A DNA stretch of 32,000 bases, taken from contig CAVRAI010000006.1 of the NCBI GenBank assembly GCA_963718915.1, forward strand, positions 120,001-152,000. The letters run 5' to 3'. The notes under the pieces are model-generated. The model was not told the origin of the DNA and ran no database searches. It was given only the letters and a program-made list of their open reading frames with translations. Source of the DNA: an uncultured Chloroflexia bacterium (GTDB lineage: Bacteria > Chloroflexota > Ktedonobacteria > Ktedonobacterales > JADMIN01). Both the position numbers and the translations under genes were made by a program. Shown here piece after piece: positions 1-28,739 of this stretch; within the stretch, counting starts at the first letter, position 1, and the number at the start of each line of letters is the position of its first letter.

Positions 1-2
1 CA

Positions 3-1322
3 GTCGCCGCTGTCTATACGCAGCAGACGCCGCCCACCACCTTCACGTTCAATACCTATCCGCCTATCGCCAAGTTCGGCAATCCCGACCCACTCGATGT
101 AGATATGAACGCTGGTTCGCTGACCGAAGGCATTCAACTTGACGTGCCCCCTGGCCCGGCGGGCGCGATGCCGAATCTGACGCTGGCCTATAACAGCGCG
201 GCGGTGAACGAACAGCACAGCCCCCAGGGCGCGGCGGGCTGGGTGGGCGAGGGCTGGAGCCTCTCGCTCGGCTCGATCAGCTGGGCTGAGCACAATGTCG
301 TGCCCACCTGCACGACGAGCTGCACCAATAGCTGGCAGAGCCAGTGGATGCTGAACGATCCCTTCGGCACCAGCACAGAGCTGATTCCGCCTAATCTGGC
401 GACCTCGACCTACTATGACGACTCGAACAACTGGTGGTGCACGACCGGCAACGCCTCGTCTACCGCCTGCCCGATTCAATTCCAGACGGCCAATGAGAGC
501 TACGCCAAAGTCTATGCCTATGTTGGACCTACCAAAATTGGCACTCAGACCGATCCATTCCCCTGTTTCCGGGTCTATCTGCGGAACGGCGTCATGGAGG
601 AGTTTGGCTGCACCGCCGACTCGTTGCAGTATTATCCGCTGCTGTCTGGGTCGTTGCCGCACCAGGGCAACAGCAACGTGGTCTATCCCGTCGCCTGGAT
701 GCTCGATCTCATCACCAATCCGCAGGGTGGCCAGGTGCATATTACCTACCAGCGAGATATGGCGACCGCGTCTAACGGCGTCTCCTACCCCCGTGATGTC
801 GTTCCGTCGACCATCGAGTGGGACTCGCCCGACTGCAACAGCGCCAAGCTGCTGTGTCCCAGCTCGTCGTGGCATCCACACTACCGCGTCCAGTTCAGCG
901 CCACGCACTCGACGTACGTTGGGCACCCAGCGAATACGCCCACAGGCTGCAACACCGATTCGACGGTCCGCTGCGATGACCCGATGAACATCACAGGGGC
1001 GAATGGCTCGAACGCGCCGCTGGTGAATGGCGCCTTCGTGCTCAACGACGCCAATGTGCAGATCAACAACACCCCTGCGACCAGCTACAATAGCTCCTCG
1101 TGGAATACGGTGCGTGACTACCAGTTCAGCTATGAGCAGTCTGGCCCGACGACAATTGTCGATCCGGTGACCGGCAAGAACATTTCGAGCGCGGGCTATC
1201 TAGACCTCACGCAGTTCCAGGAGTTCGGCGACAACGGGACGTCGAGCTACTATCCGGCGATGAGCTTCGGCTACTCCAGCCAGACGGAATACTACGAGGA
1301 CGGCAGCTATACGCCGTACTAG
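3..1322 (+). pseudogene. Main rhs/Tc-type toxin gene, fragment 1 (SpvB/TcdB-like N-terminal region); 5' end lies upstream of the window
   Basis: Frame 3 is open from base 3 (VAAVYTQQTPPTTF...VDMNAGSLTEGIQLDVPPGPAGAMPNLTLAYNSAAVNEQHSPQGAAGWVGEGWSLSLGSISW). The L-x-Y-N-S ... G-x-G-W-x-L pattern is typical of SpvB/TcaC-type N-terminal regions that precede YD-repeat shells. The frame stops at TAG 1320-1322, but protein-like coding continues in frame 1 (TSTTFCGPSWNTGGNGGTCDLWSQSRDGNSRYLTTIDNGQGLHQSISW, about 1318-1465) and then in frame 2. Confidence 0.75.
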
Positions 1323-4036
1323 CACGACGTTCTGTGGCCCAAGCTGGAACACCGGCGGGAACGGGGGTACCTGCGACCTGTGGAGCCAGAGCCGGGATGG
1401 CAACAGCCGCTACCTGACCACGATCGATAACGGCCAGGGGCTGCACCAGTCGATCTCCTGGAGGTTATGCGCGCAACAACACCCACGGAGCCGGTACCTC
1501 GCATGGTGCTGATGACGTCAACCCGTTCTATTGCACCACGAACCCGACGGGATACCCATGCAACTCGGCTGACGATCAGGCGTGGAGCCGCATCGTGGTC
1601 ACCAGCCGTTCGGATTCCGTGCAGCAGCTCACCCAGGCGGGGCAGGGCGGGACGCTGACCTCGACCCCAATCACCAGCAACTGGACATACAACTACTACC
1701 TGTCATCCCTGACCGCGAAGGAATGCATCGACTGTGTGGCGGGCATGTACTGGGGCAACCAGAACGACGGCGACTACATGGACTACTACAACGGCAAGTT
1801 CATGGGTTTCGCCGAGGCGGATGTCTCGAACCCGGATGGGTCCGCCGAGAAGCATTTCTATGAGGCGACCGAGGGCTGGGGTGTCTATACCCTGAACACC
1901 ACATTGGTGCCAAGCTGTAACTCGACGCTGCCACCGATCCAGACCGCGTGCCAGCCTTCACCCTGGTGGGATGTGGCCAACGCCGGACATGGGCTGGAGA
2001 CAGAGGCGGACTACTACGACAGCGACACTGGCCATACCCTGCTCAAGAAGATAACCTCGACCTACAACGCCGTCTGCCCGCCAAGTGGGGTCAGCGCGAC
2101 GCCCGTGTACACTGGCAGTGGCAGCAGCTTCGGCCCCTGGGGGAGCAATCAGGTCAGCGAGCTAGACCACAACAACCCGGTGGCGGTCTGCGACGTGCAG
2201 AAGACACAGCAGGTGACGACCACCTATGACAGCAATGGCTTTGGCTCGGGTAATAGCATCAGCGAGACCGACAGCTACACTTATGACATCTATGGCATGG
2301 TCTCGCAGACGAAGCGGGTTAGCAGCAGCGGCGGCTCCAGCCCGACGACGATCTACGACAAGACCACCTTCATCCGCAACGACGGGCTGACCCTGCCACC
2401 CTCACAGCGCAACGGGACCAACCAGAGTCCCTCCACCGCGAACCCGACCTGGTGGAGCGGCGTCTATCTCGTCGAGTTGCCCGCCCTGGAGACGGTTGAG
2501 GATAGCAGCGGCAACGGTAACCGCTATAGCTGCAACTATACCCTCTACGATGGCATGGCGGTGTATACGATCAGCCAGACCAGCAGCCTGACGAAGGGCA
2601 ATGTGACCGAACAGGACACCTATACCAACTGCGGGACCGCGCCGAACTACACGACCAGTGGCAAGGTGGGCGCGACGACCAGTTACGACACGTATAGCAA
2701 CGCCACCGCAACCCAGGACCCCGACGCCGTCAACGGTGACGCCTCGCACAAGATTGCCAGCGGCAGTTGCTCGGGCCAGACGAACTGCACCCAGTACGAC
2801 GCGAACACCGCCGCCAAGACGACGGGCAGCAGCAGCGTAGGCAATCTGAACGACGCCAGCGCCTATGACACGACCGCCGGGGGCGGCTACGGACTCTGGC
2901 CGACCACGACGACCGACGCCAACGGCCAGACGACGACCTATACCTACGATGGGCTGGGACGCATGCAGACGATGGTTGCGCCGGGGCAGACCAGCGGCCC
3001 CGCCACCCAGACGACCGCCTATTACAACAATCTCTGCCCCGCTACCGGCGCTTCATCGCCCTGTGTCGAGGTCGATACGACAAGCCGGACCAGCAGCACG
3101 ACCAGCGTCCTGACCCGCCAGTTCTACGACGGCGAGAACCGGTTGGTGGAGACACGCACCGCCGCGCCTGGCGGGCAGGATGTTGTCCAGTACACGCTCT
3201 ACAATGCCGCCGGGCAGGCCGCGCAGTCGAGCGTCAAGTACTTCGTGACGGCCTATACCGGCCCGGGAGGCGTTACCGCCGCCTACTCGATTCCCGATAG
3301 CACGCAGGATGGCACGATCACGAGCTATGACGGCCTGGGGCGCATGATCCAGGCGCAGGATGCGCTCTCGAACGTCGGCCACATCGCCTACTCGATTGTC
3401 TGTAACGCGCCAGGGACGAGTGACTCCGCCTGCTACGAGCAGACGCTGGCCACCGACCCGAACAATCACCAGCAGGGCAGCCTGAGCGACGCCTTTGGCC
3501 GCGCGCTCTATGCCCAGCGCTACAGCGGCAACAGCCCGGCGACCTATGCCGTCTATAGCACGGCCAAGACCACCTACGACTTCCTGGGCCGGGTGACGCA
3601 GACCTTGCAGCCCGATGGCGTCAGCATGTCGACGGCGACCTATGACGCCGCCGGACACGTGACCAGCGCCACCGACCCGGATCGCGGGCTGACCAGCTTT
3701 ACGTATGACAGCAACGGCAACCTGACCCAGCAGACCGACGCCCGCTGCGGGACGAGCCTGCCGCAGACGGCGTGCGGCGCAGGGACGACCTACACCGGCT
3801 ATGATGGCCTCAACCGGCCGATCTGGCGCAACAACAGCAGCACACCGAGCGGGGCGTACGTCACCTATTCGTACGACGGCTCGCCCTTCGGCAATGGGAT
3901 GGGACATCTGACCGCCGAGGTCTTCCGTGGCAGCGCGGGAACTGGCCCCGCCCAATTCTCCGGCGCCTACACCTACGCCTATGATTCGCTGGGCCGCACC
4001 GTTCAAACCGACCAGACGATGGGCGGGGCGGGCGCG

Positions 4037-4600
4037 TGCCCACCCGGCTGGACCTGCCAGGATATTGGCGGCCCCGGGCAGGCGGGGAGCCAGAGCTACG
4101 CGGGCGACAGCCTCTGGACCGTCTCGGGCGGTGGGACGGATATCGTGGGGACGAGCGACCAGTTCCACTTCGTCTCCCAGAGCCAGGCGGGCGACGCGAC
4201 GCTCTCGGCCCATGTCGCCTCACAGACCACCACCGACCCCTGGGCCAAAGCTGGGGTGATGGTGCGCGCCACCGGCACGGGGGCCAACGCGCCGTTCTAT
4301 GCGGTGCTGGTCTCGCCGGGCAACGGCATCGCGGTGCAGTATCGTGATACGGCGGGCGGCACGGCAGTGCACCCGGCGAACGTCAACGGCGTGGCGGCGC
4401 CCGCTTATGTCGCCGTCGCGCGCGTGGGGACCACCTATAGCGGCTATACCTCCACGGATGGGACGAACTGGACCTTGATCCCTGGCTCCAGCCATACCAG
4501 CAGCGGCCTCAGCGGCAGCGTACAGATGGGGCTGGCGGTGACGGCGCACAACAACGCGACCGTCTCGACGGCGACCTTCGACACCGTCTCGCTCATGACC
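4037..4600 (+). other. ConA-like/LamG-type (DUF1349-like) beta-sandwich domain, copy 1, inserted in the Rhs shell
   Basis: CPPGWTCQDIGGPGQAGSQSYAGDSLWTVSGGGTDIVGTSDQFHFVSQSQAGDATLSAHVASQTTTDPWAKAGVMVRATGTGANAPFYAVLVSPGNGIAVQYRD...GTTYSGYTSTDGTNWT...VQMGLAVTAHNN...FDTVS. The pattern W..QDIG...G.G.DI.GTSDQF.F....GD....A.V..Q...WAKAGVM.R...Y......G...QYR matches what I recall from ConA-like lectin/glucanase-fold accessory domains. The family name is from memory, not from a search. Confidence 0.6.
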
Positions 4601-4615
4601 GGGGGCGCGAATGTC

Positions 4616-5165
4616 TGCCCGACCGGCTGGACCTGTCAGGATATCAACAGCCCAACGCCCGCTGGGAGCCAGAACTACCTCAACAACGGCGTCTGGATCA
4701 TCTCGGGCGCAGGCGCCAACATCTGGGGGACGAGCGACCAGTTCCACTACGTCTCGCAGGCCGTCGCCAGCGATGTCGCCTTCAGCGCCCATGTCGACTT
4801 GCAGACCAACACGAACTCGGTTGCCGAGGCGGGAGTGATGGTGCGCGGCAGTAGCGCCAATAACGCCCCCTACTACTTCGCGTTCGCCACCCCCAGCGGC
4901 GTCGTCTACGTCCAGTACCGTGACGCGGCGGGTAACACCGCCGCCACCCAGACGACCACTGCTGGGAGCGCACCGATCTACCTCAAGGTCGGACGGGTGG
5001 GAACCACCTACACTGCCTACACCTCCAGCGATGGCGTCACCTGGACGGCGATCTCCGGCTCGGCGCGCACCATGAGCAACCTGAGCGGCAGCGTGCAGAT
5101 CGGCCTGGCCGTCACCTCGCACAACAACGGGACACTCTCGCCCGACACCTTCGACCAGATTAGCG
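4616..5165 (+). other. ConA-like/LamG-type beta-sandwich domain, copy 2 (tandem with copy 1)
   Basis: CPTGWTCQDINSPTPAGSQNYLNNGVWIISGAGANIWGTSDQFHYVSQAVASDVAFSAHVDLQTNTNSVAEAGVMVRGSSANNAPYYFAFATPSGVVYVQYRD...GTTYTAYTSSDGVTWTAISGSARTMSNLSGSVQIGLAVTSHNNGTLSPDTFDQIS. It is colinear with copy 1 over its whole length. Confidence 0.6.
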
Positions 5166-5720
5166 AGACGCCGGGTAGTTCCCCAGTCTTCGCGCCGCCC
5201 GCTGCCGTCACCGTCACGCCCATCGCCGCCGCCGATGGCACGACCAGCTACCCCATTCAGACGGCCTACAACGACGCCAGCCAGCCGACGACGCTCACCT
5301 ACTCGGACAACGAGGTGGCCAGCTACGGCTACGACGGCGCCTCTGGCTGGCTTTCGAGCCTGAGCACGACCCCGGCAGGCGGCAGCGCGACCACGCTCCT
5401 GGGCAGCATTGGCTACAGCGGAGTCGGTGGGGCAGCGGGTCACGCCACCAGCGCGAGTGTCGGCGGCGGCACGTACACATTTAGCTCTAGCTATGACGCC
5501 GATGTCCGCCTGAGCAGCCTGAGCGTCTCGAACACCAGCACCAGCGCTGTGCTCTTCCAGAGCCAACGGGGCTATGACGCCGCCAGCAACGTGACCTCGG
5601 TCGCCACGACGCTCTCCGCCGGAACGGACAACCAGGCGTTCTGCTATGACGACCAGAACCGGCTGGTCTGGGCCGGATCGACCGGCACGCCGTCGTGCGG
5701 GAGCTCACTGACCGCCAGGG

Positions 5721-6222
5721 AGCCTGAGCAGCGCCAACTACACGCAAGCCTTTACCTACGACAATCTGGATCGGCTCACCAGTGGGCCGCTGGGCAGCTA
5801 TACCTATGGCGATAGCGCCCATCTGCATGCCGTCACCAGCATTGGCAGCGGTGCCGACCTATACCGCCAAATATGACGCGGTCGGCGACATGACCTGCCG
5901 TGCGCCTGATAACACGACGACCTGCGCGGGTACGCCAACAGGGGCACAACTGGGCTACGACAACGAGGGGCGACTCGCCACCTGGCAGAATGCGCCAAGC
6001 AGTCCGACCACCACTGATAGCTTCCTCTACGATGGGGCGGGCAACGGGTCGAGCAGTCGGTAACCATCAACGGCTCGATGACGACCACGACCACCTATGT
6101 GGCGGGCGGGCTGGAGGAGATCAGCGCCAATGGCGTAAGCACGACCACGACCACGTATTTCACGGGCGCAGATGGCTTGCCCACCGCCGAACGGGTGAGC
6201 ACGGGGAGCACGCCGGCCCATT
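5721..6222 (+). pseudogene. Main rhs gene, three short frame segments between closely spaced frameshifts
   Basis: Frame 3 reads SLSSANYTQAFTYDNLDRLTSGPLGSYTYGDSAHLHAVTSIGSG. Frame 1 reads PTYTAKYDAVGDMTCRAPDNTTTCAGTPTGAQLGYDNEGRLATWQNAPSSPTTTDSFLYDGAGN. Frame 3 then reads VEQSVTINGSMTTTTTYVAGGLEEISANGVSTTTTTYFTGADGLPTAERVSTGST. All three are colinear with the uninterrupted cassettes O4 and O5. The apparent 1-nt indels are near 5852 (ggtGccgac vs ggtccgac), 6045 (aacggg vs aaccggg) and 6212-6216. Confidence 0.7.
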
Positions 6223-7297
6223 GAGCTACCTAGCAACTGACGGGCAAGGGACGGTCAGCACATCGCTCGATAGCGCAGGGAATGTGACGAGCAGTCAGCT
6301 CTACACGCCGTATGGGAACGCGCGCTATAGCAGCGGCAGTTCGCCCACCACGCTGGGATATACGGGCCAACGCGCCGATAGCGCCACGGGGCTGGATTAC
6401 TACCAGGCGCGATATTACGATCCGGTGGCGGGCCAGTTTGCCTCTGCCGATTCGGTCGCTGATGGGCTGAATCGCTATGGGTATGTGGCAGGCAATCCGG
6501 CGACGGCGACCGATCCCAGCGGGCACTACCAGTGTTTCGATGACTCTTGCACGCGCGGAGGAGGCCACGGCGGCAATGGCACGAGTGGCAGTGGTAGCAA
6601 GAGTGACGGCGATGGAGGTGGTACTGGCACGCATGGATCCTGTAAGGAGAGTGCCTATCATCCAGAGTGCAAAGCGTATTATGATTGGCAGCGACAAAAT
6701 GAGCCGCTCCGCTGGGATGCGCTCAATGGCCTCCGTACTAAAGCGGGCATGCTCTTAATAGTTGCGGCAGCCGCGCTATTGCTTGCAGGTCTAGTTACAA
6801 TAACCGCGAGTCGTAATGCGGTCACGATATTCGATACTCTCCTAGACATGGGAGAGGGTATCTATGCGGGCCTTCTGGGCATTCATCTTCTTAGAAATGC
6901 CTCGTGGGATGTTAACTATGCCACAGGTGATGATCTGAATGCTGTATCATTCGCGCTGGCGGCCCTTACTTCCGCGGTCAACAGTGCTTTGGGAATCCTG
7001 GTCCAAATCGCAAAACTAGGCTGGCTTGGAAAAGCTCTTGAGGACGTAGCGCTGCCGGCAGCCATCGAAGCGGCCAAAACGGCTGCAACAGGTGGATTTA
7101 TGGGCATAGTGATTAGGCTAATCATAGATGCCGCCCAAGGTATGGTAGGCGTTGTAGCTACAGCAATAAGTCAAACCGTCTATGCGGCGGCTATGGCCGC
7201 AAAGATAGACTTTGACCAGAACCTGAACATGGACTTAGAAACGTGGTGTGGGCTGCATGATGGCGTCTGCACGAAGGCACCAAAGAACACTTATTGA
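6215..7297 (+). pseudogene. Main rhs gene, last fragment: RHS repeat-associated core plus C-terminal domain CT1 (6527-7297)
   Basis: GPLSYLATDGQGTVSTSLDSAGNVTSSQLYTPYGNARYSSGSSPTTLGYTGQRADSATGLDYYQARYYDPVAGQFASADSVADGLNRYGYVAGNPATATDPSGH is the canonical RHS core; DPSGH lies at 6512-6526. The unrelated CT1 follows: YQCFDDSCTRGG, a Gly/Ser-rich linker, then a long Ala/Gly/Ile/Leu/Val-rich region ending WCGLHDGVCTKAPKNTY. Confidence 0.8.
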
Positions 7298-7540
7298 GGA
7301 GCCTACCGTTCCCGCGTCGCAGTCGAGCTTCCGCCACGATCTATGCCAGCGCATAATCGATGTACAGAGGGCGTTATGAACTTGATGAGCCGGTCTCAGA
7401 CGCCCTAGAATGGCGATGGAGCGCTGGCGAGAGGATGAAGAAGGCATCGGCTCTCAAGGCTCCCAATTTCACCCAGGCTGTGGCGATCACGGGCGGCCCA
7501 AGGCCTTTCCTAACACCTGCGCAAAGGACGGAGAACTCGA

Positions 7541-7924
7541 TTGAGAGATACAAGTGCGATTGCGATTATATCAGGTATTACATTTGCCCTTGCAGGCCTT
7601 GCGTTTATGTTAATCGTTACACCGATGGCGGTGCGCTCGGTCTATACGCAAACGCCCAGGCAGTCACATCGATCATTCGGTCGCATAAGCGCATGGCTGG
7701 TGGCGCTAGGAACAGAGGCAACAGGATTAATACTCCTTGCTATTGGGGTAGTGTCTCTGCTGGGGTTGATAGATCACCGTATCTCCGAACTGGCCTTCGC
7801 TGCAATAGACGCGTTCATAGTGCCATATGGAGCACTATATTTACTGGTGTCAATATTGCTCGTGGCAATAGGCGTGTTGACATTATTCGTGGGCCGCATA
7901 GTTTCTCAACACCGCAACCGGTGA
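7541..7924 (+). CDS. Small multi-pass membrane protein; candidate immunity protein for CT1
   Basis: 127 codons with a TTG start and GGACGGAG 7 nt upstream. About four hydrophobic segments (AIAIISGITFALAGLAFMLIV, ISAWLVALGTEATGLILLAIGVVSLLGLI, AFAAIDAFIVPYGALYLLVSILLVAIGVLTLFV). It is the first plausible same-strand ORF after CT1. The immunity role is inferred from position only. It overlaps the 7360..7980 ORF, which looks like off-frame noise. Confidence 0.55.
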   Translation: MRDTSAIAIISGITFALAGLAFMLIVTPMAVRSVYTQTPRQSHRSFGRISAWLVALGTEATGLILLAIGVVSLLGLIDHRISELAFAAIDAFIVPYGALYLLVSILLVAIGVLTLFVGRIVSQHRNR

Positions 7925-8339
7925 CATCCACGCGCATAAAAACACCGGATGTCTCACATTGCGCCTATGACTATCTGTGACTACTGCGGCGATGTGGTTA
8001 CTGTCAAGGCGAGGTGTGAATGGAGTGAACTTCTGATTACGAACCAGACAGGCAAGTCAACTCAGCCGTAGTCATGAGGGAGAGTGATGTATATTATCTC
8101 CACAATCCGCCTAGAAGAAAGCGAGTTGACAGATGCGAGGTCTATGCTAGTAGGCTTCGTCAGGCACAGAGGATACATCCTGTTGCAGGCGCGGCAGCAG
8201 AGCAACGCCACCTGCGTTCCCTCTGGCGCATTGCAGCTTCCCCTGCTGGCAAGCACTGCACTGCTGGCGCTGTTGGTATTGCTGCTGGTTTCGTGCGCTA
8301 CTCGCGGTACTCTCACTACGCAAGGAAAGAAGGCCAGGG

Positions 8340-8936
8340 ATGGGACAGGCACACTATGAGACGCAACCTGGGGAGCAACACCTGCTAGCCAACGGCGCAC
8401 TCTCCCAGATCAGCAAAGCGTCACAAGCGTCACAAGTGTCACCCGACTTGTTCCACCTAGCTCTCAGGCTCATTGCCGAATTGGGCGCCTGCATACAGAT
8501 GATCGCCAGTGACCTCCTTCACGCGCACGAAGAAGCGCACGAGGCCCAAGACCTGGACCTAGCCGCGCACCGCTGGGCGCAGCACCTGCGGGCGGTAATC
8601 GCGTTGGTCGAAGAACTCGGGAACGGTAGCGCGAGGGAGAGGGAGAGAAGCGTCGGAATACCAACACTGCGCCCGCTAGTCGCTCCGTACGCTACTGCCA
8701 CGACGCAGACAGAACCAGGATCTTCCCGCCTGGCACGTCCGATGCGTCGCGCCCGTCCAACATCAGCATTGGCATCTCCAGTCCGGTTGACACCCCGCGA
8801 ACGCGAGGTGCTACGCCTGGCTGAACGCGGCTATCCGCCGCGCATAATTGCCAAGCGGCTCTATCTCTCGGTGGAGACCGTCTATACCCACCGGCGCAAC
8901 ATCCGCCGCAAACAACAGCAGCATGCCCAGCCGTGA
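8340..8936 (+). CDS. LuxR/GerE-family helix-turn-helix transcriptional regulator
   Basis: The C-terminal LTPREREVLRLAERGYPPRIIAKRLYLSVETVYTHRRNIRRK matches the LuxR/GerE-type HTH pattern (T.RE.EVL.L...G....IA..L..S..TV..H..NI..K). I do not recognise the N-terminal 140 aa. Confidence 0.7.
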   Translation: MGQAHYETQPGEQHLLANGALSQISKASQASQVSPDLFHLALRLIAELGACIQMIASDLLHAHEEAHEAQDLDLAAHRWAQHLRAVIALVEELGNGSARERERSVGIPTLRPLVAPYATATTQTEPGSSRLARPMRRARPTSALASPVRLTPREREVLRLAERGYPPRIIAKRLYLSVETVYTHRRNIRRKQQQHAQP

Positions 8937-8943
8937 AGTGGGG

Positions 8944-12238: not shown

Positions 12239-12336
12239 TCGTCTTGTACCTCTAAGTCGTCTGCGGTGCATTTCGCTACGACTTCGGCAGGTCAACTACC
12301 TTTAGAATTGCGCCTGTGGGCGTAATTTTCGGCTCC

Positions 12337-14834: not shown

Positions 14835-14836
14835 TA

Positions 14837-16040
14837 GTACTCAGTCCAGTTTGATTTGAGGGTTAGGATAGAGCGCATGCAGCTTGGTACGAGCATCATC
14901 GGGGGTGAATTGCCAGCGGATGCGGGCGTGAGTTGCGTTGCGCTCGGCCTCCAGGGCGGTGACGCGCTGAACCAGCGTGTCGTTATCGGGGACTGGACGC
15001 GCGAGGCAGCCGCGCTCGATGACGCTGATCTCGATCTCGGCCATATTGAGCCAACTGCCATGTTTTGGCGTATAGTGCACCTCCAAGCGGCTGGCGATAG
15101 CGCGCGCCTGCGCAGGCGGGAACGCCGCATAGAGCGCGGCCAGGGTATGGGTGTTGAGGTTATCCTGCACGAGCGCGATGCGCTGGGCCAGAGGGAAGGC
15201 TTCCTTGACCAGCCACCGCAAGCAGCGGGCATAGTCCAGCGCGGTACGCCGCGCGGTGACGCGTACGTGACGCCAGCCCGCATGCGGAGCGACCAGCACA
15301 AAGAGGTTGGCCGGTCCCTGCCGAATATATTCGTAGTCCGGCGCTCCACGCGGCCGGGAGCGGGCGGCAGTCCCATCCGCGGCTGCCCGTGCAAGACGAC
15401 GGGCTTCTCATCGAGGCAGACGAGGGGGCGCAGGGGATCGGGCGGAGCGGCATAGACGTGGGCGTAAAGCGCGAGCACATCCTCCATCGCCGCGACAAAG
15501 GCGGCGCTCACGGTGGGAATACACCAGGCTTTGTGCTGCCAGGGCTTCAGCGCGTTTTTTTGAGCAAGGCGCGGATGGTTTCGGGCGAGATGCGTTCCAC
15601 AAAGCCGAGTTCGATCGCTTTGCCCGCCAAGAGGCGCAGCGTCCAGTGGTCGTGGCCAGCGGGCGCATCGCTGCACGCGACGGCAATGAGGTGGGCTTGC
15701 TGCTCGCCGGTCAAGGCGGCCCGGAGCCGCGTCTGCCGCCGGTCGGCGAGCACCGCCGCGACACCCTCTGCGGCAAAGCGTTGGCGCACGCGCCAGACCG
15801 TATTCTGGCTGACATCGAGCGCCTGGCTAATCGCGGCGGCGCTCCAGCCGTCGGCCAATTTCAAGAGCACATGGGCGCGCCGCTGGATCCGCGCAGCGGT
15901 ATGTCCGCGCTGGATGACGGTCTGGGCCTGGGCGCGTTCAGCGGCGGACAACGTCAGGGGGTGGGTAGAGGTGGGCATACGAGGCTCCTTTCTGGTGCTG
16001 CATTCTACCACCTTCTCCCAAATCAATGTGGACTAAGTAC
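14837..16040 (-). mobile_element. IS630-family insertion sequence, copy B, directly abutting copy A through a single shared TA
   Basis: Same inverted repeats as copy A (14837-14858 and 16019-16040), flanked by TA 14835-14836 and TA 16041-16042. It is nearly identical to copy A apart from scattered substitutions and small indels. Confidence 0.85.
14841..15978 (-). pseudogene. IS630-family transposase, copy B (two-frame organisation at an A7 run, plus further indels in the catalytic region)
   Basis: The HTH ORF ends ...PETIRALLKKTR* and the DDE frame continues KNALKPWQHKAWCIPTVSAAF... from the A7 run (plus-strand T7 at 15555-15561), which is reachable by a -1 shift. The frame is lost again after ...VVLHGQPRM and is regained at LVAPHAGWRHVRVTARRTALDYARCLRWLVKEAFPLAQRIALVQDNLNTH...WLNMAEIE. 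Confidence 0.75.
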
Positions 16041-16042
16041 TA

Positions 16043-16716
16043 GAGCGTACGTCGCTCCGGGCCAATTGGAGCAAAAAGGCACAGATAACAATCCTACCGT
16101 CTACAAGTATGGGACCAAACAAAACGGGGCTCTGCTCTCAGGGTATAGCGGGAAGGTTTTGGATCATCTGATCCAAACGAGGGAGATCCTAAGAAAAGCT
16201 TACCAAAAGTTTCTCGATTGGGATGAAAATGAAGGCGAAGCAGCTATCGACGTCGCTTCAGTGGTTGGTGCATTTGTCTCGGCTGTTGCAGCGTGCTATA
16301 AGACTGACTTTAATGAGTGTCCCCTCTTCGATGGGGACGAACTCGAGCAACTACATGAATGGTGGGTTGGAAACCTCACAGTACTGGAGCAATTGGCTGT
16401 GGTTGATGCCGAGATGAATGTCGCAGATTTTAACGCTTCGATTACGGCCTTGAAGGGAGCGGCATCTAAAGGTCAGACCGTATGGTACAGACAAATGATG
16501 TGGCTTGGACACATTAACTCTAAATATAGCCAGGAAATTGGAGGGCCATCGTTTAGCACGGGTTGGGGCGATCAGCCTCCACCGGATGCATTGTATGCGA
16601 TTGGCAACAGCATGATGGCGCAATGTGCTGGATATCCGTCGAGTGACTTTGGGACTAGTCCAGGAGTAACTAAACAACAGGATTCCAATTACCCTGGCAC
16701 TGGGCCTTGCAATTAA
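16043..16716 (+). pseudogene. 3' part of CT3 (toxin domain of cassette O3), displaced by the IS pair
   Basis: Joining 13632 to 16043 (removing IS-TA-IS-TA) restores one frame: ...GCSYADAT-RAYVAPGQLEQKGTDNNPTVYKYGTKQNGALLSGYSGKVLDHLIQTREILRKAYQKFLDWDENEGE...PGTGPCN*. Without the IS pair, CT3 would be 265 codons. Confidence 0.7.
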
Positions 16717-16798
16717 AGACCAAGGCCCAGAAAATAGGTACTGCTAGATTCACAACTACTGCTAGATTGCTACGGCAGCATAGCAGAAGAGCGAAAGA

Positions 16799-17524
16799 GT
16801 GAAGGTGTGCATGTCAAATAACCTTGTACCAGAGCAGGTGAATTCCCTGCAGCCGCCTGAACACTCGTTGCGAGCCCTCGTGGCAGCACTCATCGCTATT
16901 GGTGTTCATCCCAGTCGCGCCGTCTTCTCCCAATGGATGGATATCGTTCGACCTGAGAGGATACGCCTCTACGCACTACTGCTCTATGGATTGGTAGTAT
17001 TCAACGGACTATTGTCATCGGTGGTGCCAGCAGTTTTCGGCCTTTCAAGTCTACCAGCGACAAATGGAAACGGGGCATCAATGCTGCCCGGCAAATTGAT
17101 CGTTGCCGTTTTCGTGTCGCCATTCGCGGTTCTACTTGGCATTGCCGTGATCATCTCTATCGTTGCAGCGCTCATGCCTGCGACCCAGGGAACACTCAAC
17201 CATCGTGCATATCTCCTCCTACGTCCATTTCTGCTCGCACGGCTTACGGCGGCCACCGTAATTATTCTCCTCGACGTCCTTACGCTTCCGCTGCAGCTGC
17301 CCATCGTTACGCAGCATCTCTCACTGAATGCATGGCAGCCGTTGGTGGCGCTTGCCGCTGCTATCTATGAACTCATTCTCTTAACTAACGCTCTTGCCGC
17401 CGTGAGTACACGAAGCAGGTGGTTACTCTTCGCAATCATTGTATTCGGCGAGTTAACAGGATATTTGCTTGGCTCCGTATTCCCAGTCGCGGTACTTCGA
17501 GCATTTGGTATTCACACATCCTAA
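16799..17524 (+). CDS. Polytopic membrane protein (about 6 hydrophobic segments); candidate immunity protein for CT3
   Basis: 241 codons from GTG 16799; an in-frame ATG at 16811 preceded by GAAGG is an alternative start. Hydrophobic segments include IRLYALLLYGLVVFNGLLSSVVPAVFGL, LIVAVFVSPFAVLLGIAVIISIVAALM, WQPLVALAAAIYELILLTNALAAV and WLLFAIIVFGELTGYLLGSVFPVAVL. It is the first same-strand ORF after CT3. Confidence 0.6.
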   Translation: MKVCMSNNLVPEQVNSLQPPEHSLRALVAALIAIGVHPSRAVFSQWMDIVRPERIRLYALLLYGLVVFNGLLSSVVPAVFGLSSLPATNGNGASMLPGKLIVAVFVSPFAVLLGIAVIISIVAALMPATQGTLNHRAYLLLRPFLLARLTAATVIILLDVLTLPLQLPIVTQHLSLNAWQPLVALAAAIYELILLTNALAAVSTRSRWLLFAIIVFGELTGYLLGSVFPVAVLRAFGIHTS

Positions 17525-17590
17525 CAACAAGAAGTATGCGCCTGGAGATCCACCACCGGCAGCTATCTCGACCGTAGGACGCGGATCCGG

Positions 17591-19576
17591 GTGGCGCAAA
17601 AGGCGACGACCAGCCTCACCTACTCCGACAATGAGGTGGCCAGCTATGGCTACGACGCCACCTCCGGCTGGCTCAGCAGCCTGAGCGCCACCCCGGCAGG
17701 CGGTAGCGCCACGACCCTGCTCGGCAGCATCGGCTACAGCGGGGCGGGCGGGGCGGCGGGCCACGCCACCAGCGCCAGTGTCGGCGCAGGCACATATACC
17801 TTCGGCGCCAGCTACGACGCCGATACCCGGCTCAGCAGCCTGAGCGTCACCAACACCAGCACCAGCACAGTGCTCTTCCAGAGCCAACGGGGCTACGACG
17901 CCGCCAGCAATGTCACGGCGGTGGCCACGACGCTCGCGGCCGGAACGGACAACCAGGCGTTCTGTTACGACGACCAGAACCGGCTCGTCTGGGCCGGATC
18001 GACGGGCACCCCGTCGTGTGGGAGTACCCTCACGGCAGGCAGCCTCAGCAGCGCCAACTACACCCAAACGTTCGCCTACGACACGCTCGACCGGCTCACC
18101 AGTGGGCCGCTAGGCAGCTACACCTATGGCGACAGCGCCCACCTCCACGCGGTCACCAGCATTGGCAGCGGGCCGACGTATACGGCCACGTATGACGCGG
18201 TCGGTGACATGAGCTGCCGTGCGCCGGACAATACGACCACCTGTGTAGGCACACAAACCGGGGCGCAGTTGGGCTACGACAACGAAGGGCGATTAGCCAC
18301 CTGGCAGAATGCGCCAAGCAGCCCCACCACGACGGACAGCTTTCTCTACGATGGTGAGGGCCAGCGCGTCGAGCAGTCGGTGACAGTCAATGGCTCGATG
18401 ACGACGACCACGACGTATGTGGCGGGCGGCGCCGAAGAGATTACTGCGAATGGGGCAGGCACAACCCTCACCAAGTACTTCGCTGGCGCTAACGGGCTCC
18501 CGACGGCTGAGCGGGTTGGGACGGGTGGTCCGATCAGCTACCTGGCCACAGATGGGCAAGGGACCGTCTCTGAATCGCTGGACAGCGCGGGGAACGTGAC
18601 GAGCAGTCAACTCTATACACCGTATGGCAACGCACAGTATAGCAGCGGCTCTTCGCCGACGAGTATGGGCTACACGGGCCAACGAGCAGATGGCGCGACG
18701 GGGTTAGACTTCTACCAGGCACGGTACTACGATCCAGTGGCAGGCCAGTTTGCCAGTGCTGATACCATGGCAGATGGATTGAACCGGTATGGGTATGTAG
18801 GAGGCAATCCTGAAACGGCAACAGACCCCAGCGGACACAAGGCGTATTCTGGGGATGGGGGAGGAATAAACTGCCTCTCGTTGCTGGATTGTGGCCTTAA
18901 CCTGGTCTATGGTGGCAACGCGTCGGCAGATCGTCATGGTCATATTACAGTAGGCGATGGCCAGCAGATGACGATATCGCCAGTTGATAATGATGCACCT
19001 CACGGTGCTACCAGCGAATATGAATGGTGCACTAACGACGGTACGTGTGTAACTGCGGTCGGGTACTCAGGGAAGGAGTTGAAGAATCTCATCAGTTCAG
19101 ACAAAGAACGTTTGAATGACGATCAGGCCTGGTTGCAGAGGCTAAACGATTGGAGCTCTGACATCGCAAATGGAACTGGTCTTGCCGTTGGAGTGATCGT
19201 AACATTGTGCGTGTTGGCAGCGGAAGGTGTCGCAACAGTAGAAGGAGACCCGCCTCCTGATGTCTCGTCGGCAATTAAGCAAGCTCTCGGGGTTGGATCA
19301 TTGGCAATGACTGGAACCGCTGCTGGATTAAATCTGGTGCTTGACATCGCTAAAGTCCAACTGAGATCAACGATCTCAGATCTGCAAGCCACACTAGCGC
19401 TGGAGAATCGGGCGGCGCGATCTGATAGCACCCTGTGGTATGTTAGTGGGGCTGGTGCTACCGTCATCGAGAGAGGGAGCAGTCCTGGAGACGCTGTGAA
19501 AAACGCAGTAGGCAAGGAACTCTATCGTGAATGCGTCACGGGGATAGGCTTCTTCAATAACGAGCACAACTGCTGA
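17591..19576 (+). CDS. Orphan rhs cassette O4: YD repeats, RHS core and CT4 (18839-19576); uninterrupted frame but only a GTG start and no N-terminal shell
   Basis: 661 codons. Homology to the main gene begins at about 17603 (TSLTYSDNEVASYGYDATSGWLSSLSATPAGGSATT). The core ends YGYVGGNPETATDPSGH (DPSGH at 18824-18838). CT4 is KAYSGDGGGINCLSLLDCG...VGYSGKELKNLISSDKERLNDDQAWLQRLNDW...GFFNNEHNC. I saw no convincing RBS before the GTG. Confidence 0.8.
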   Translation: MAQKATTSLTYSDNEVASYGYDATSGWLSSLSATPAGGSATTLLGSIGYSGAGGAAGHATSASVGAGTYTFGASYDADTRLSSLSVTNTSTSTVLFQSQRGYDAASNVTAVATTLAAGTDNQAFCYDDQNRLVWAGSTGTPSCGSTLTAGSLSSANYTQTFAYDTLDRLTSGPLGSYTYGDSAHLHAVTSIGSGPTYTATYDAVGDMSCRAPDNTTTCVGTQTGAQLGYDNEGRLATWQNAPSSPTTTDSFLYDGEGQRVEQSVTVNGSMTTTTTYVAGGAEEITANGAGTTLTKYFAGANGLPTAERVGTGGPISYLATDGQGTVSESLDSAGNVTSSQLYTPYGNAQYSSGSSPTSMGYTGQRADGATGLDFYQARYYDPVAGQFASADTMADGLNRYGYVGGNPETATDPSGHKAYSGDGGGINCLSLLDCGLNLVYGGNASADRHGHITVGDGQQMTISPVDNDAPHGATSEYEWCTNDGTCVTAVGYSGKELKNLISSDKERLNDDQAWLQRLNDWSSDIANGTGLAVGVIVTLCVLAAEGVATVEGDPPPDVSSAIKQALGVGSLAMTGTAAGLNLVLDIAKVQLRSTISDLQATLALENRAARSDSTLWYVSGAGATVIERGSSPGDAVKNAVGKELYRECVTGIGFFNNEHNC

Positions 19577-19607
19577 AGCCACAATCATTATCAGGAGCCC
19601 GTAAACA

Positions 19608-19886
19608 ATGAGTCGGCAACCTGCAAAACGGAAAATAGCGCTGGTTCTTCTCGGCGCTGTCTTAGGAGGAATAGTGGGGCTGGCACTCGTTGAGGTAGTC
19701 TTGTCACCTGCGTTCGCGAGTTACTTTCGCAGTTGGGGAGCGGAGCAGTTACAGCAGTTTCTGCGTCAACCGGTAGTGTCTCCATTTGGGGGAGCTCTGA
19801 TTGTTGGCCTAGGTTTCTACCTGGGTGGGAGGTTGGCGCTCTGGTTGTTGTGGGATAGGCGGAATCCAAGAAATGAGGTAGCCTAA
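19608..19886 (+). CDS. Small two-pass membrane protein; candidate immunity protein for CT4
   Basis: 92 codons, ATG start with AGGAG 9 nt upstream, beginning 31 nt after the CT4 stop. Hydrophobic segments: IALVLLGAVLGGIVGLALVEVVL and FGGALIVGLGFYLGGRLALWLLW. Confidence 0.6.
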   Translation: MSRQPAKRKIALVLLGAVLGGIVGLALVEVVLSPAFASYFRSWGAEQLQQFLRQPVVSPFGGALIVGLGFYLGGRLALWLLWDRRNPRNEVA

Positions 19887-19977
19887 ATAGGGCGGCTTGG
19901 TATAACCAAGTAATGTAATGCTAGGCAAGCTAGCTGCTGCTTAATTCGTATTCCGTAATCAGCCCAAAATTATTCTG

Positions 19978-21888
19978 GCAGGCGGCAGCGCCACGACACT
20001 GCTCGGCAGCATCGGCTACACGGGAGCGGGTGGAGCGGCAGGCCACGCCACCAGCGCCAGCGTCGGCGGGGGGACGTACACCTTCGGCGCCAGCTATGAC
20101 GCTGATGTCCGCCTCTCCAGCTTGAGTGTCGCCAGCACCAGCGCCATCTTGTTCCAGAGCCAACGCGGCTATGATGCAGCGAGCAACGTGACCTCGGTCG
20201 CCACCACACTTACAGCGGGAACCGACAACCAGGTGTTCTGCTACGATGACGAGAACCGCTTGGTCTGGGCCGGGTCTACCGGCACCCCAAGCTGTGGCAC
20301 GTCCCTGACGGCAGGGAGCTTGGGTAGCGCCAACTACACGCAAACGTTCACCTACGACAATCTGGATCGCCTCACCAGTGGGCCACTGGGCAACTACGCC
20401 TATGGCGACAGCGCGCACCTGCACGCCGTCACCAGCATAGGCAGCGGTCCGACCTATACCGCCAAATATGACGCGGTCGGCGACATGACCTGCCGTGCGC
20501 CTGATAACACAACGACCTGCGCGGGTACGCCGACAGGGGCACAACTCGGCTACGACAACGAAGGACGGCTCGCCACGTGGCAGAATGCGCCGAGCAGTCC
20601 CACCACCAGTGATAGCTTCCTCTACGATGGGGCGGGCAACCGCATCGAGCAGTCAGTGACGATCAATGGCTCGATGACCACGACGACGACGTATGTGGCA
20701 GGCGGGCTGGAGGAGATCAGCGACAACGGCACGGGCAGCACCCTCACCAAATACTTCACGGCGGGGAATGGCCTGCCGACGGCGGAACGGGTCGGGACCA
20801 GCGGCCCGCTGAGCTATCTGGCCACGGACGGACAGGGCACCGTCTCCCAGTCTCTCGACAGTGCGGGGAATGTAACGAGCAGCCAGCTCTATACGCCGTA
20901 CGGCAACGCGCGTTACAGTAGCGGAAGCTCGCCAACGAGTATGGGGTATACCGGGCAGCGGGCGGATGGCGCGACGGGGCTGGACTATTACAGTGCTCGG
21001 TACTATGATCCGGTGGCAGGTCAGTTTGTCAGTGCTGATACGGTGGCCGATGGGCTGAGCCGTTACGGGTATGTAGGTGGCAACCCCGAGACGGCGACTG
21101 ATCCCAGCGGGCACTACCAATGCTTCGACGATTCATGCGCGCGCGGAGGGGTCGGCTCAAGTGGGAGTGGCAGTGGTTCGGGTAGCGGGTCTAGTGGCGG
21201 GAAGGGATGTGGTGGCAATCAGCAATGTTCACCAGGTTCACCAGGTTCTCAGGATCCTTGCGCAAAACCGCCCAGCGAGTACTATGCAGCGTGCTACGCA
21301 CAGTGGGAGGACACGAATAAACAGAAGCGCTTTGATGCGCTCACATTAACGCGAGTGATAGCCTATGGCACTCACGGGCTAGGCCTGGTTTTGAGCATGC
21401 TGGCTGATGTGGCTATCTTTATGACCAAAGGTTCAGCAGTTCCAGCCCTTATGGCTTGGTTAGACTTCGCTTTTGACACGTTGAGCCTGGCGGATGATGT
21501 AGCAAACGCTATTTCTGATGCTGCTATGATAGCTGCGGTGGGATGGATGACAGGTGTAGTTCACGCCGTCATAGGGATCGTACGTGGAGCTATAGCCCTG
21601 TATAAGCAGTGGGGCCCACTTGGGGAAGCGGCGGCAGATGCCGCAGTCATCACAATGAAAGCAGGCTTTGGTGGTCTCCCTTCGGTGCTGACTACGATCA
21701 TCATGATGCTGGCGGGAGTTATGGCAAATAATCTTCTGAGTGCTGGTGGGCATTTTGTAATAGCACTCGGAGCCGCGTTAATATGGGATTACCAACGCCA
21801 AATGTCGGAGGACATCGGGGTTTGGTGTTCCGAGAGTCAGAACAAGGGGGTATGCACGACACCGCCGGTTAATCCCAATCCGATCTAA
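19978..21888 (+). CDS. Orphan rhs cassette O5: YD repeats, RHS core and CT5 (21115-21888), a paralog of CT1; uninterrupted frame, no canonical start before TTG 20122
   Basis: The frame is open from 19945 and homology starts at AGGSATTLLGSIGYTGAGGAAGH (19978). The core ends YGYVGGNPETATDPSGH (21100-21114). CT5 is YQCFDDSCARGG, a (GS)n linker, a long hydrophobic Ala/Gly/Ile/Val region, and ends VWCSESQNKGVCTTPPVNPNPI. Confidence 0.8.
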   Translation, partial: AGGSATTLLGSIGYTGAGGAAGHATSASVGGGTYTFGASYDADVRLSSLSVASTSAILFQSQRGYDAASNVTSVATTLTAGTDNQVFCYDDENRLVWAGSTGTPSCGTSLTAGSLGSANYTQTFTYDNLDRLTSGPLGNYAYGDSAHLHAVTSIGSGPTYTAKYDAVGDMTCRAPDNTTTCAGTPTGAQLGYDNEGRLATWQNAPSSPTTSDSFLYDGAGNRIEQSVTINGSMTTTTTYVAGGLEEISDNGTGSTLTKYFTAGNGLPTAERVGTSGPLSYLATDGQGTVSQSLDSAGNVTSSQLYTPYGNARYSSGSSPTSMGYTGQRADGATGLDYYSARYYDPVAGQFVSADTVADGLSRYGYVGGNPETATDPSGHYQCFDDSCARGGVGSSGSGSGSGSGSSGGKGCGGNQQCSPGSPGSQDPCAKPPSEYYAACYAQWEDTNKQKRFDALTLTRVIAYGTHGLGLVLSMLADVAIFMTKGSAVPALMAWLDFAFDTLSLADDVANAISDAAMIAAVGWMTGVVHAVIGIVRGAIALYKQWGPLGEAAADAAVITMKAGFGGLPSVLTTIIMMLAGVMANNLLSAGGHFVIALGAALIWDYQRQMSEDIGVWCSESQNKGVCTTPPVNPNPI

Positions 21889-22306
21889 CCAGATGAGTCC
21901 AGCAACCAGAGGATACGCGCCATAGCAAGCCGCTTGCCCTGAGAATTGCCCAATTCAGTAGGTTATCCCCACACTTAGGAACCATCCGGCCAGCCCAGAG
22001 CGAGGTTCTTCGGGACAACCAAGCAAGTGCTGCGGGGTGTCGGCATGGTTGGGGGCTCGTCTGGTGCTGTGAAGGGAGCGGAAATGCACGGCGGATGGGG
22101 TGGATCCGCCCGGCGAAAGAGAGCGCTCCGCAGGCAAGCGCCATCCAGTGACGGGAGATCGAGCCACATCCGGTAGTCGCAGGGTTATGGGGCAGTGCCC
22201 GGTTTCGGCAGTGGCGCACAGAACGGTGGGGAAACCGTGAGTTGCGAGTCGTTGTAGTGCACTCTTGCGGGGATGTGCCACGGTTGGAATACCGTTCGGG
22301 GAAAGT

Positions 22307-22714
22307 ATGGCGGGAAAATGCCTCTCGTGTGGGGGCAAGCAGGTAGGTGTGCATGTGATTGAGCGTGTGATAATCCTGGCGTTTATTGTGCTTTTCACAA
22401 GCGTTGCCGGATTCTTCATCTATTTGCTCGTCGTCTGGATCGTCGGTCGTCGCAGACTCCATGAACCGCTCACCCGGCAGCAGCTCGGTATCGATTTACT
22501 GCTTCTGGCAGGTGGATTGGGTTTCTTGGCGTTCGCTCTGCTATTCGTCATGTTCGGTCAGGAGAGCCATGACATCGCTTTGCCCAGCGATGTAGCGCAA
22601 GGGCTGAAGGTTGCAATGATAGCGTTAGGCGCTTCATCAGTTGCCATTGTCTTCTGTGGAGTGGCAATCCTCTTGGCCGACCGCTTTCTTCATCTCCCGG
22701 ATAGGTCGGTCTAA
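22307..22714 (+). CDS. Small multi-pass membrane protein; candidate immunity protein for CT5
   Basis: The ORF track gives 22265..22714 from a TTG. The in-frame ATG at 22307 (MAGKCLSCGGKQ...) is preceded by GGGGAAAG. Hydrophobic segments: VIILAFIVLFTSVAGFFIYLLVVWIV, IDLLLLAGGLGFLAFALLFVMF and VAMIALGASSVAIVFCGVAILLA. Start choice is uncertain. Confidence 0.55.
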   Translation: MAGKCLSCGGKQVGVHVIERVIILAFIVLFTSVAGFFIYLLVVWIVGRRRLHEPLTRQQLGIDLLLLAGGLGFLAFALLFVMFGQESHDIALPSDVAQGLKVAMIALGASSVAIVFCGVAILLADRFLHLPDRSV

Positions 22715-22792
22715 GCAGTCTCCCAAAGATATCTACACCAAGCGGAAGGCGGGCTTATCAGTCGCGTGGAGTTGCACTTCGAGGTTTGTGAG

Positions 22793-23362
22793 TAGCGCAT
22801 CTGCCTGGCTTTCGAGTCTGAGCACGACGCCCGCAGGCGGCAGCGCCACCACCCTGCTGGGCAGCATCGGCTACAGCTGGCGCAGGCGGAGCAGCGGGCC
22901 ATGCCACCAGCGCCAGCGTGGGCGGGGCGGAGGAGGGACCTATACCTTCGCAGCCAGCTACGACGTCGATGTCCGTTTGAGTAGCCTGAGTGTCTCGAAC
23001 ACCAGCACCAGCGCCGCTTGTTCCAGAGCCAACGGGGCTACGATGCGACGAGCAACGTGACGGCGGTGGCTACGACGCTCTCTGCCGGGACGGACAACCA
23101 GGCGTTCTGTTACGACGAGCAGAACCGGCTGGTCTGGGCAGGGTCCACCGGTACGCCATCGTGTGGGTCTTCACTCACGGCAGGCAGCCTCAGCAGCGCC
23201 AACTACACCCAGACGTACAGCTACGACACCCTGGACCGGCTCACCAGCGGTCCCCTGGGCAGCTACAACTATGGTGATAGCGCCCACCTCCATGGCGTCA
23301 CCACCATTGGCAGTGGGCCAACGTATACGGCGACATATGATGCGGTGGGGAATATGGCCTGC
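22793..23362 (+). pseudogene. Orphan rhs cassette O6: 5'- and 3'-truncated YD-repeat fragment with frameshifts; no core, no toxin domain
   Basis: SAWLSSLSTTPAGGSATTLLGSIGYS..., then a pair of compensating frameshifts (about 22878 and about 22935), another near 23007 (gccgcttgttcc vs gccgtgctcttcc), then FQSQRGYDATSNVTAVATTLSAGTDNQAFCYDEQNRLVWAG...TYTATYDAVGNMAC. Homology to the other cassettes stops at about 23362. Confidence 0.75.
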
Positions 23363-28640: not shown

Positions 28641-28739
28641 CCTTTCGGCCGCAGCACGGTTCCCACGTGCGAGACATCTGAGTTGCTGGCGTGTGGCGGT
28701 TACGCAGACTCTCCTCTCCTGCGGCAGGTGAAGCAGCGC

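Follow-up and report, generated by a model that had tools for sequence, protein, structure and literature searches.

The window analysed here, a stretch of 32,000 nucleotides (nt) from contig CAVRAI010000006.1 (assembly GCA_963718915.1, positions 120,001 to 152,000) of an uncultured Ktedonobacterales bacterium in the phylum Chloroflexota, carries on its plus strand a large rhs gene that is followed, on the same strand, by four core-bearing cassettes with distinct tips and small open reading frames (ORFs) and by one coreless fragment, an arrangement that probably represents an Rhs/YD-repeat polymorphic-toxin locus. We refer to the homologous YD-shell and RHS core stretches as arms, to the cassettes as c2 to c6, to the variable C-terminal tips as CT1 to CT5, and to the small downstream ORFs, which are candidate immunity genes, as I1 to I5. 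The array is laid out as follows (aa, amino acids).

1-7297, plus strand: main rhs gene; 5' end beyond the window, frame-disrupted as sequenced
5286-6526, plus strand: main-gene arm, delimited by self-blastn; RHS core domain at about 6302-6526, ending DPSGH; homologous to all cassettes
6530-7297, plus strand: CT1 tip; Cys/Gly-rich linker and hydrophobic helical domain; CT5 homologue
7541-7924, plus strand: candidate immunity gene I1; 127 aa, 3 predicted transmembrane helices (hydropathy scan), TTG start
8940-10733, plus strand: c2 arm, the longest, extending back to main-gene position 4706; truncated lectin-like domain, shell and core
10735-11382, plus strand: CT2 tip; 215 aa, soluble
11567-12238, plus strand: candidate immunity gene I2; 223 aa, acidic, soluble; AAGGAG upstream
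12331-13507, plus strand: c3 arm, delimited by self-blastn; at least 4 frameshifts
13509-13632, plus strand: CT3 tip, 5' part
16043-16716, plus strand: CT3 tip, 3' part; in frame with the 5' part after removal of 13633-16042
16799-17524, plus strand: candidate immunity gene I3; 241 aa, multi-pass membrane protein
17607-18838, plus strand: c4 arm, intact; ORF open over 17525-19573
18839-19576, plus strand: CT4 tip; 245 aa, one hydrophobic segment; marginally similar to CT3
19608-19886, plus strand: candidate immunity gene I4; 92 aa, 2 transmembrane helices; AGGAG upstream
19977-21114, plus strand: c5 arm, intact; ORF open over 19945-21885, equivalent to public protein P0007
21115-21888, plus strand: CT5 tip; same family as CT1
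22307-22714, plus strand: candidate immunity gene I5; 3 transmembrane helices; alternative TTG start at 22265
22795-23362, plus strand: c6; coreless arm fragment with one frameshift, 3'-truncated

Five plus-strand copies of the motif RYGYVxGNPxTAxDPxGH start at 6473, 10681, 13455, 18785 and 21061, and on the minus strand of the window a search for it found none. The DPxGH of these five RHS core ends falls at 6512, 10720, 13494, 18824 and 21100, exactly where a first-pass annotation, made from the letters alone, had placed them. Each is preceded by 1.1-1.8 kb of homologous YD-shell DNA, and self-blastn unites the arms of the main gene and c2-c5 with the coreless fragment at 74-83% nt identity, in agreement with that annotation's account of more than 1.1 kb of related YD/core DNA before each core and of a sixth fragment that lacks one. 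Its spot check of the main gene against c5 gave the right count, 10 mismatches in 185 nt, but the partner stretch is 20456-20640, 5 nt from where it had been put. Membership of the RHS family is clear from profile searches: TIGR03696 matches the main gene, c2, c4 and c5 at 67-79 bits against a cut-off of 32.5 (E 1e-18 to 3e-21) and frame-repaired c3 at E 2e-22, the main gene contains RHS/YD repeats (PF05593, E 6e-14; TIGR01643, E 1e-13), and a profile built from full-length relatives matches the solved shells of Rhs, TccC3, YenC2 and teneurin proteins in the PDB. Both the RHS assignment and the homology of the five arms, as first proposed, are therefore borne out by hidden Markov model searches and self-alignment. 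All five cores also contain the context ARYYDPVAGQF(A/V)SAD...DPSGH of an aspartyl autoprotease motif, which ends at DPxGH and from which we predict self-cleavage that would release the toxin.

Base composition separates the two parts of the cassettes, with a GC content of 0.64-0.65 in the arms and of 0.49-0.54, 10-15 points lower, in the tips. The initial description of each core end as followed by an unrelated, more AT-rich tip and a same-strand small ORF stands in its composition and in its small ORFs, but at least two of the tips, CT1 and CT5, are homologues, and after CT3 there is no direct adjacency, since two insertion sequence (IS) copies intervene 124 nt into that tip. Likewise, the main-gene-plus-orphan-tips layout is upheld by the profile matches, the arms, the tips and the small ORFs, but not by an intact gene at its head.

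At two places an ORF precedes a cassette in the same frame with one stop codon between them (8154-8936/8937-9704 and 16784-17524/17525-19573). This same-frame, single-stop arrangement, which before c2 involves the LuxR-type ORF listed below and before c4 involves I3, may be due to chance. Scans of the window with Rfam and for tRNA genes found nothing, and a look for short repeats in the inter-cassette spacers gave nothing convincing.

8340-8936, plus strand: LuxR/GerE-type helix-turn-helix (HTH) ORF (GerE, E 1e-10); its stop codon abuts the c2 start in the same frame

CT1 and CT5, which are 27% identical over about 253 aa, have in common a Cys-rich linker, long hydrophobic helices and a terminal WC...C..P motif, and belong to a small family, of which a set of 1.84 billion proteins yielded 18 representative clusters. 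The same domain ends a full-length 2422-aa Rhs protein (P0132) on another contig, and CT1 is 72% identical to P0009. The similarity between CT3 and CT4 is marginal (E 0.015, from a tiny database), and CT3, once restored by excision of the IS copies, shares 62% identity with the P0113 C-terminus over 258 aa. CT2 has no PDB sequence match and no detectable relatives; its word-indexed protein search came back empty, missing even the 100%-identical parent protein P0006, and is therefore a weak negative, as are other empty results of this search with short queries. The combination of hydrophobic helical toxins with membrane-protein partners suggests that CT1, CT5 and perhaps also CT3 and CT4 are membrane-targeting toxins that would act by depolarisation or pore formation and would be blocked by the immunity protein in the membrane, while CT2 is a soluble domain paired with the soluble, acidic I2. 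The putative immunity function of the small ORFs is suggested by their position, strand and transmembrane content, and by the Shine-Dalgarno-like sequences that precede several of them. A longer ORF at 7360-7980 was considered as the CT1 immunity gene and rejected: it has neither transmembrane segments nor matches, and the overlapping ORF at 7541-7924 with its three transmembrane helices was tentatively preferred.

The main gene contributes three further features upstream of its arm.

3-1319, plus strand: N-terminal region, weakly SpvB-like, corresponding to about residues 290-840 of full-length relatives
4019-4603, plus strand: first of two tandem ConA-like (DUF1349-type) domains, about 190 aa, inserted in the YD shell
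4604-5173, plus strand: second of these domains, about 190 aa

Window residue 1 aligns to about residue 290-410 of full-length relatives, which places about 1 kb of the main gene, including the export signal, beyond the window. The product of 3-1319 is 64-79% identical by blastp to P0132, P0130 and others and matches Pfam SpvB at E 0.007 and 16 bits, below the cut-off of 22. Compared with the intact 2222-aa homologue P0122, the main gene is 70% identical and colinear over 594-6532 across its frames, with changes of frame near 1316-1333, 1461-1469 and 5713 and again before 6185; the repaired protein would have about 2,750-2,850 aa.

The two lectin-like units form an internal repeat of 68% identity (self-blastn). 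Pfam PF07081 (DUF1349) matches them in the main gene at E 7e-7 and 29.5 bits, under the gathering cut-off of 32.4, and matches the truncated copy at the c2 start at 18.3 bits, also under the cut-off, while three relatives (P0126, P0233 and P0234) carry a precomputed PF07081 match. An AlphaFold2 (AF2) model of the domain from a 17-sequence alignment is a β-sandwich of high confidence (predicted local distance difference test, pLDDT, 93.9; predicted template modelling score, pTM, 0.91), for which Foldseek returned the DUF1349 structures 3o12 and 3mep as best matches (E 1e-7, probability 1.0, template modelling score 0.70-0.76), followed by CBM66 (4b1m), GH43 C-terminal domains and legume lectins. 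The extra lectin-like domains that the first-pass annotation had suspected are thus supported by the confidence of the model and its structural neighbours. The inserts have the same β-sandwich as the DUF1349/ConA domains (3o12, 3mep and CBM66 4b1m, at a score of about 0.7), but the two groups are only 15-18% identical, the Pfam matches stay below cut-off and the Rhs-shell context differs. Most relatives align to the first 58% of the query only, and some have PA14, GLEYA or LamG domains instead, so that the shell seems to have here a slot for variable carbohydrate-binding domains. The inserted domains probably bind glycans of the target cell.

With respect to export, none of the ORFs searched had a Pfam or NCBIfam match to PAAR, a VgrG-binding domain, or vgrG, hcp or chaperone genes. 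The N-termini of relatives are signal peptides or transmembrane anchors, that of the window gene itself being outside the window, and an RHS toxin type with a signal peptide and SpvB ('TcdB/TcaC') has been listed in Chloroflexi (Zhang et al. 2012, PMC3482391), in a framework of polymorphic toxins that the architecture seen here also fits. Since there is no sign of linkage to a type VI secretion system (T6SS) and relatives have signal peptides or anchors, a Sec-dependent, WapA-like route is the best guess by analogy for the main protein.

The first-pass annotation had described the head of the array as one full-length gene, which does not hold for the deposited sequence: the gene is cut at its 5' end by the window edge and is broken by at least 6 frame-breaking indels, hence no intact ORF. 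Its frames run over 3-1319 (f2), 1264-1509 (f0), 1418-5812 (f1), about 5715-5852 (f2), about 5853-6041 (f0) and 5894-7294 (f1). Relative to c2, c4 and c5, its arm has +1 at 5712, +1 at 5852, -1 at 6041 and an 8-nt insertion at 6206-6213, where c3 has 9 nt; the upstream frame, if continued past the indel, would reach a stop at 5813. The public protein P0121 (1406 aa) covers the main-gene ORF 1595-5815 only. What heads the array is accordingly a gene that is present and colinear with P0122, but not the intact full-length rhs gene known from other arrays (Jackson 2009; Poole 2011). Among the cassettes, c3 has multiple frameshifts (at least 4), c2 has one (+1, at about 9641) and c6 has one, which leaves c4 (683 codons) and c5 (647 codons) as the only clean ORFs.

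The indels sum to zero modulo 3 both in the main arm (+1, +1, -1 and 8 nt of a 9-nt insertion) and in the c3 arm (-1, +1, +1, -1), and although the main gene and c3 carry at least 11 of them, the repaired arms contain no nonsense codon and have the same ratio of nonsynonymous to synonymous substitution rates (dN/dS) as the intact arms. Such a pattern fits either sequencing error or very recent disruption. The breaks in the main gene, c2, c3 and the IS copies could then be errors of assembly or polishing in a locus that is fully live, with an intact gene for about 2,800 aa deploying CT1. To this we give considerable weight, if short of even odds. Beyond the zero sums, the absent nonsense codons and the matching dN/dS, it would account for the confinement of the indels to multi-copy DNA (rhs and IS), with a 4.8-kb ORF and other neighbours clean, for 6 indels against 11 substitutions between the two IS copies, and for a related, long-read-style contig (L003) whose main gene is likewise split into three called ORFs. 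It sits less easily with c4 and c5, which are just as repetitive and carry no indels while 8 kb of neighbouring genes are clean, or with the nature of the indels, most of which are not simple changes in homopolymer length; moreover, the public gene call P0121 indicates that the deposited sequence carries the same breaks.

CT3 is interrupted by a 1.2-kb direct repeat, two IS copies that the first-pass annotation had overlooked.

13633-14836, minus strand: IS630-family copy, inserted in CT3
14839-16040, minus strand: second IS630-family copy in tandem, 98.7% identical to the first

Both transposase frames are disrupted, with recognisable HTH_23 (E 7e-14), HTH_29 and DDE_3 (E 6e-15) domains. The ends are inverted and both read TA|GTACT(C/T)AGTCCA, and TA is found at all three junctions (13631-2, 14837-8 and 16041-2), so that the pair has the DDE_3 and HTH domains, inverted ends and TA target duplication of the IS630 family. 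The copies lie head-to-tail with one TA between them, and 11 substitutions and 6 indels set them apart; as a rule, IS dimers in tandem are either intermediates of transposition or artefacts. Excising 13633-16042 joins 13509-13632 to 16043-16716 in frame and restores a CT3 of 265 aa. As sequenced, the locus is partly decayed, with frameshifts in the main gene, c2, c3 and c6 and with CT3 split by the IS630 pair.

How the array arose can be judged from the divergence of its arms. For all arm pairs dN/dS is 0.065-0.11 and dS, the synonymous rate, is 0.8-1.9; the arms have been under purifying selection, and low dN/dS at high dS implies that they diverged while coding for functional protein, not as untranslated local duplicates. 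Together with tips of foreign composition, this divergence fits C-terminal displacement (PMC2935791) and speaks against tandem duplication in situ of one gene's 3' end, followed by divergence and decay and with no foreign tips. In-place duplication would explain why the arms share their orientation, why several have a similar 5' boundary near main-gene position 5286-5374, and why CT1/CT5, and perhaps CT3/CT4, are paralogous pairs. A dS near saturation with dN/dS of about 0.07 is nevertheless not expected of untranslated duplicates, the tips fall well under the arms in GC and are mostly unrelated among themselves, and the same toxin families sit on other Rhs genes of other contigs. We regard in-situ duplication as highly improbable and rejected it on dS and dN/dS.

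The first-pass annotation had also suggested that recombination with the main gene could swap the deployed toxin. In enterobacteria, orphan cores are reported to be identical to the main gene (PMC2935791), whereas identity here is only 74-83%. The longest stretches that orphans share exactly with the main gene measure 23-29 nt, so that RecA-type swapping should be rare; the one longer match is a run of 62 nt shared with c5, within the following tract.

5854-6045 against 20449-20640, plus strand: putative main-gene/c5 gene-conversion tract, about 95% identity, including 62 identical nt

A run of 62 nt was reached in 1 of 20,000 shuffles that preserved codon position, and indels of the main gene, at 5852 and 6041, flank the tract; it is likely a gene-conversion patch. 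Swapping is therefore less straightforward than in enterobacteria, the arms being diverged with this one tract as the exception. After DPxGH, a linker of the type HYQCFDDSC.RGG is found in CT1, CT5, P0011 and P0066 (window 6527-6560 and 21115-21150), and one of the type HRC.T.DG.VCGGPGSSP in CT2 and P0001; with the linkers of L003 compared at 7338- and 11958-, each type leads different toxin domains. Linker types common to different toxins raise the possibility that recombination break-points lie past the core motif.

Taking these results together, we put at roughly 0.8 the probability that this is an Rhs/YD-repeat polymorphic-toxin locus of a Ktedonobacterales bacterium, composed of a main gene and displaced orphan cassettes. 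The main protein would consist, in order, of an N-terminal export or anchor region, an SpvB-like region, a YD shell with two lectin domains, an RHS core with an aspartyl autoprotease motif ending at DPxGH, and a C-terminal toxin enclosed in the shell. The cassettes would derive from 3' ends, either former or imported, that were pushed downstream in successive rounds of C-terminal displacement (the model of Jackson 2009, PMC2935791), and would retain their immunity genes along with a reserve of toxins. Several observations weigh against this assignment. The head gene, with at least 6 frame disruptions, leaves no intact delivery gene, and the Rhs locus may be non-functional in the sequenced genome, although the indels could be assembly artefacts; the N-terminus, and with it the export route, is outside the window; and the arms are diverged, unlike the enterobacterial cores, which are reported as identical. 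Furthermore, CT1-CT5 and the small ORFs have no match in Pfam, NCBIfam or PDB sequences; the first reading had likewise recognised none of the tips. An AF2 model of CT5 from an 8-sequence alignment is all-helical and of low confidence (pLDDT 59), and in Foldseek it found only insignificant helical bundles, so that no fold was assigned.

Both c4 (17525-19573) and c5 (19945-21885) form an intact ORF of about 650 aa in which GTG/TTG codons could serve as starts, so that these cassettes might be translated from internal starts instead of being silent. Each might then be a standalone effector or, together with its immunity gene, a module resembling a toxin-antitoxin pair. Public gene callers do predict c2 (P0006) and c5 (P0007) as proteins, and there is a precedent in a Salmonella orphan rhs (PMC7043789). 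No convincing Shine-Dalgarno sequence precedes the candidate starts of c4, c5 or c2, however, and an intact ORF is expected anyway of recently displaced ends; a scan for sigma-70 promoters and terminators was near background, is uninformative for this phylum and was not used. On balance we consider translation of c4 and c5 unlikely. A broader proposal, in which the deep Rhs arrays of Ktedonobacterales are working modules and not silent debris, joins three parts: c2-type cassettes carry a lectin as well as a toxin, so that their exchange may re-target as well as re-arm the protein; exchange may proceed by short-tract gene conversion between arms of about 80% identity; and CT1/CT5 with their three-helix membrane immunity proteins may be an undescribed, lineage-restricted family of membrane-active interbacterial toxins. 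Taken jointly, these three parts make a rather doubtful reading, if a slightly better one than the translation of c4 and c5.

Related loci place the window in a wider context. Contig L003 (ENA ERZ25039543 contig_22541) matches 4 kb of the main gene at about 78% identity and has five core ends with different tips, of which one carries a PT-HINT toxin and another belongs to the CT5 family. Downstream of P0122 lie small genes of the YxiG family together with an orphan, and many orphan-like ORFs of 450-650 aa share contigs. Deep arrays are therefore normal in this lineage, for which the first-pass annotation's view of this array as unusually deep does not hold. The head rhs gene of L003 (895-6177) is called as three consecutive ORFs (692, 494 and 583 aa), and its downstream cassettes are intact. 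A scan of species-representative genomes gave one related locus only, L001, in a Ktedonobacterales metagenome-assembled genome: an isolated 570-bp arm fragment (DASUHD010000175, 9993-10564) of the same arm stretch as c6, without core or tip, flanked by unrelated ORFs. Many protein relatives carry the NCBI names Ktedonobacterales or Ktedonobacteraceae. From the window itself, the public proteins P0121 (1595-5815), P0006 (c2) and P0007 (c5) come from one NCBI/ENA contig of 186,826 nt, and a 4.2-kb Logan contig (run ERR11563127) is 100% identical to 26089-30260. Downstream of the array, at 23835-28640 on the plus strand, a single ORF of 1601 aa encodes an unusual three-way fusion, in which a Wzx-type flippase (Polysacc_synt) is joined to a Wzy_C/O-antigen-ligase-like region and to a GT4 glycosyltransferase; the ORF heads a polysaccharide cluster with GT2 (28740-29732) and GT4 (29831-31024) genes on the minus strand.

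A literature search found no publication on Rhs in Ktedonobacteria. Among known systems, Bacillus subtilis WapA is a Sec-dependent, wall-associated YD-repeat toxin of contact-dependent inhibition; the main protein, probably Sec-exported too, resembles it as a YD-repeat carrier whose polymorphic C-terminal toxin is neighboured by a candidate immunity gene. A further parallel is the locus related to P0122, with its YxiG-family small genes, a family named after a gene in the region downstream of wapA in B. subtilis. The window protein is much larger than WapA, with SpvB-like and lectin-like additions, and at the sequence level the likeness is one of common RHS/YD domains.

The cocoons of TcB and TcC (TcdB2-TccC3, YenB/YenC2) offer a second comparison, as the YD shell with its predicted autoproteolytic core matches TccC3 and YenC2 in a profile search. 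Taken at its strongest, with the shell profile matching TcdB2-TccC3 and YenC2, a weak, sub-threshold SpvB-like N-terminal match (16 bits against a cut-off of 22) and relatives that carry PF03534, this likeness would make the main gene the B-C component of an insecticidal Tc (ABC) complex directed at eukaryotes and not an antibacterial toxin. That is very unlikely. The PDB profile matches are confined to the TccC-type shell and do not include the TcB part; and the 32-kb window contains no TcA-like gene. Moreover, a candidate immunity gene adjoins each tip, a hallmark of self-protection against an antibacterial toxin, whereas we know of no immunity gene adjacent to Tc hypervariable regions. To our knowledge, inserted lectin domains are also absent from solved TcB/TcC structures.

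Close counterparts of the proposed locus of main gene and displaced cassettes are the enterobacterial rhs loci (E. coli, Salmonella, Serratia and Dickeya; PMC2935791, PMC3150448, PMC3967940), which have in common with it a large YD gene with an RHS core (DPxG), a variable tip of lower GC with a small downstream immunity gene, and same-strand, 5'-truncated core/tip/immunity cassettes after the main gene. The window differs in belonging to a member of the Chloroflexota, in having no PAAR, VgrG or T6SS gene and relatives with signal peptides or transmembrane anchors, and in its arms of 74-83% identity, its ConA-like inserts in the shell and its frame-disrupted main gene. The main-gene-plus-orphan layout, documented mainly in Proteobacteria, is thus also found in filamentous soil Chloroflexota (Ktedonobacterales). 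The small, uncharacterised hydrophobic toxin family with its membrane-protein immunity partners provides candidates for experiment, and the lectin inserts may set target specificity; for annotation, the array is a warning that the deposited sequence has no unbroken ORF for the head gene and that IS copies interrupt one toxin. The accepted view of Rhs function is unchanged by this array. Its architecture is already known from enterobacteria, to which the window adds another host phylum, lectin domains inserted in the shell, arms that are diverged but share one likely conversion tract, an uncharacterised hydrophobic toxin family and the apparent decay of the head gene and of c3.

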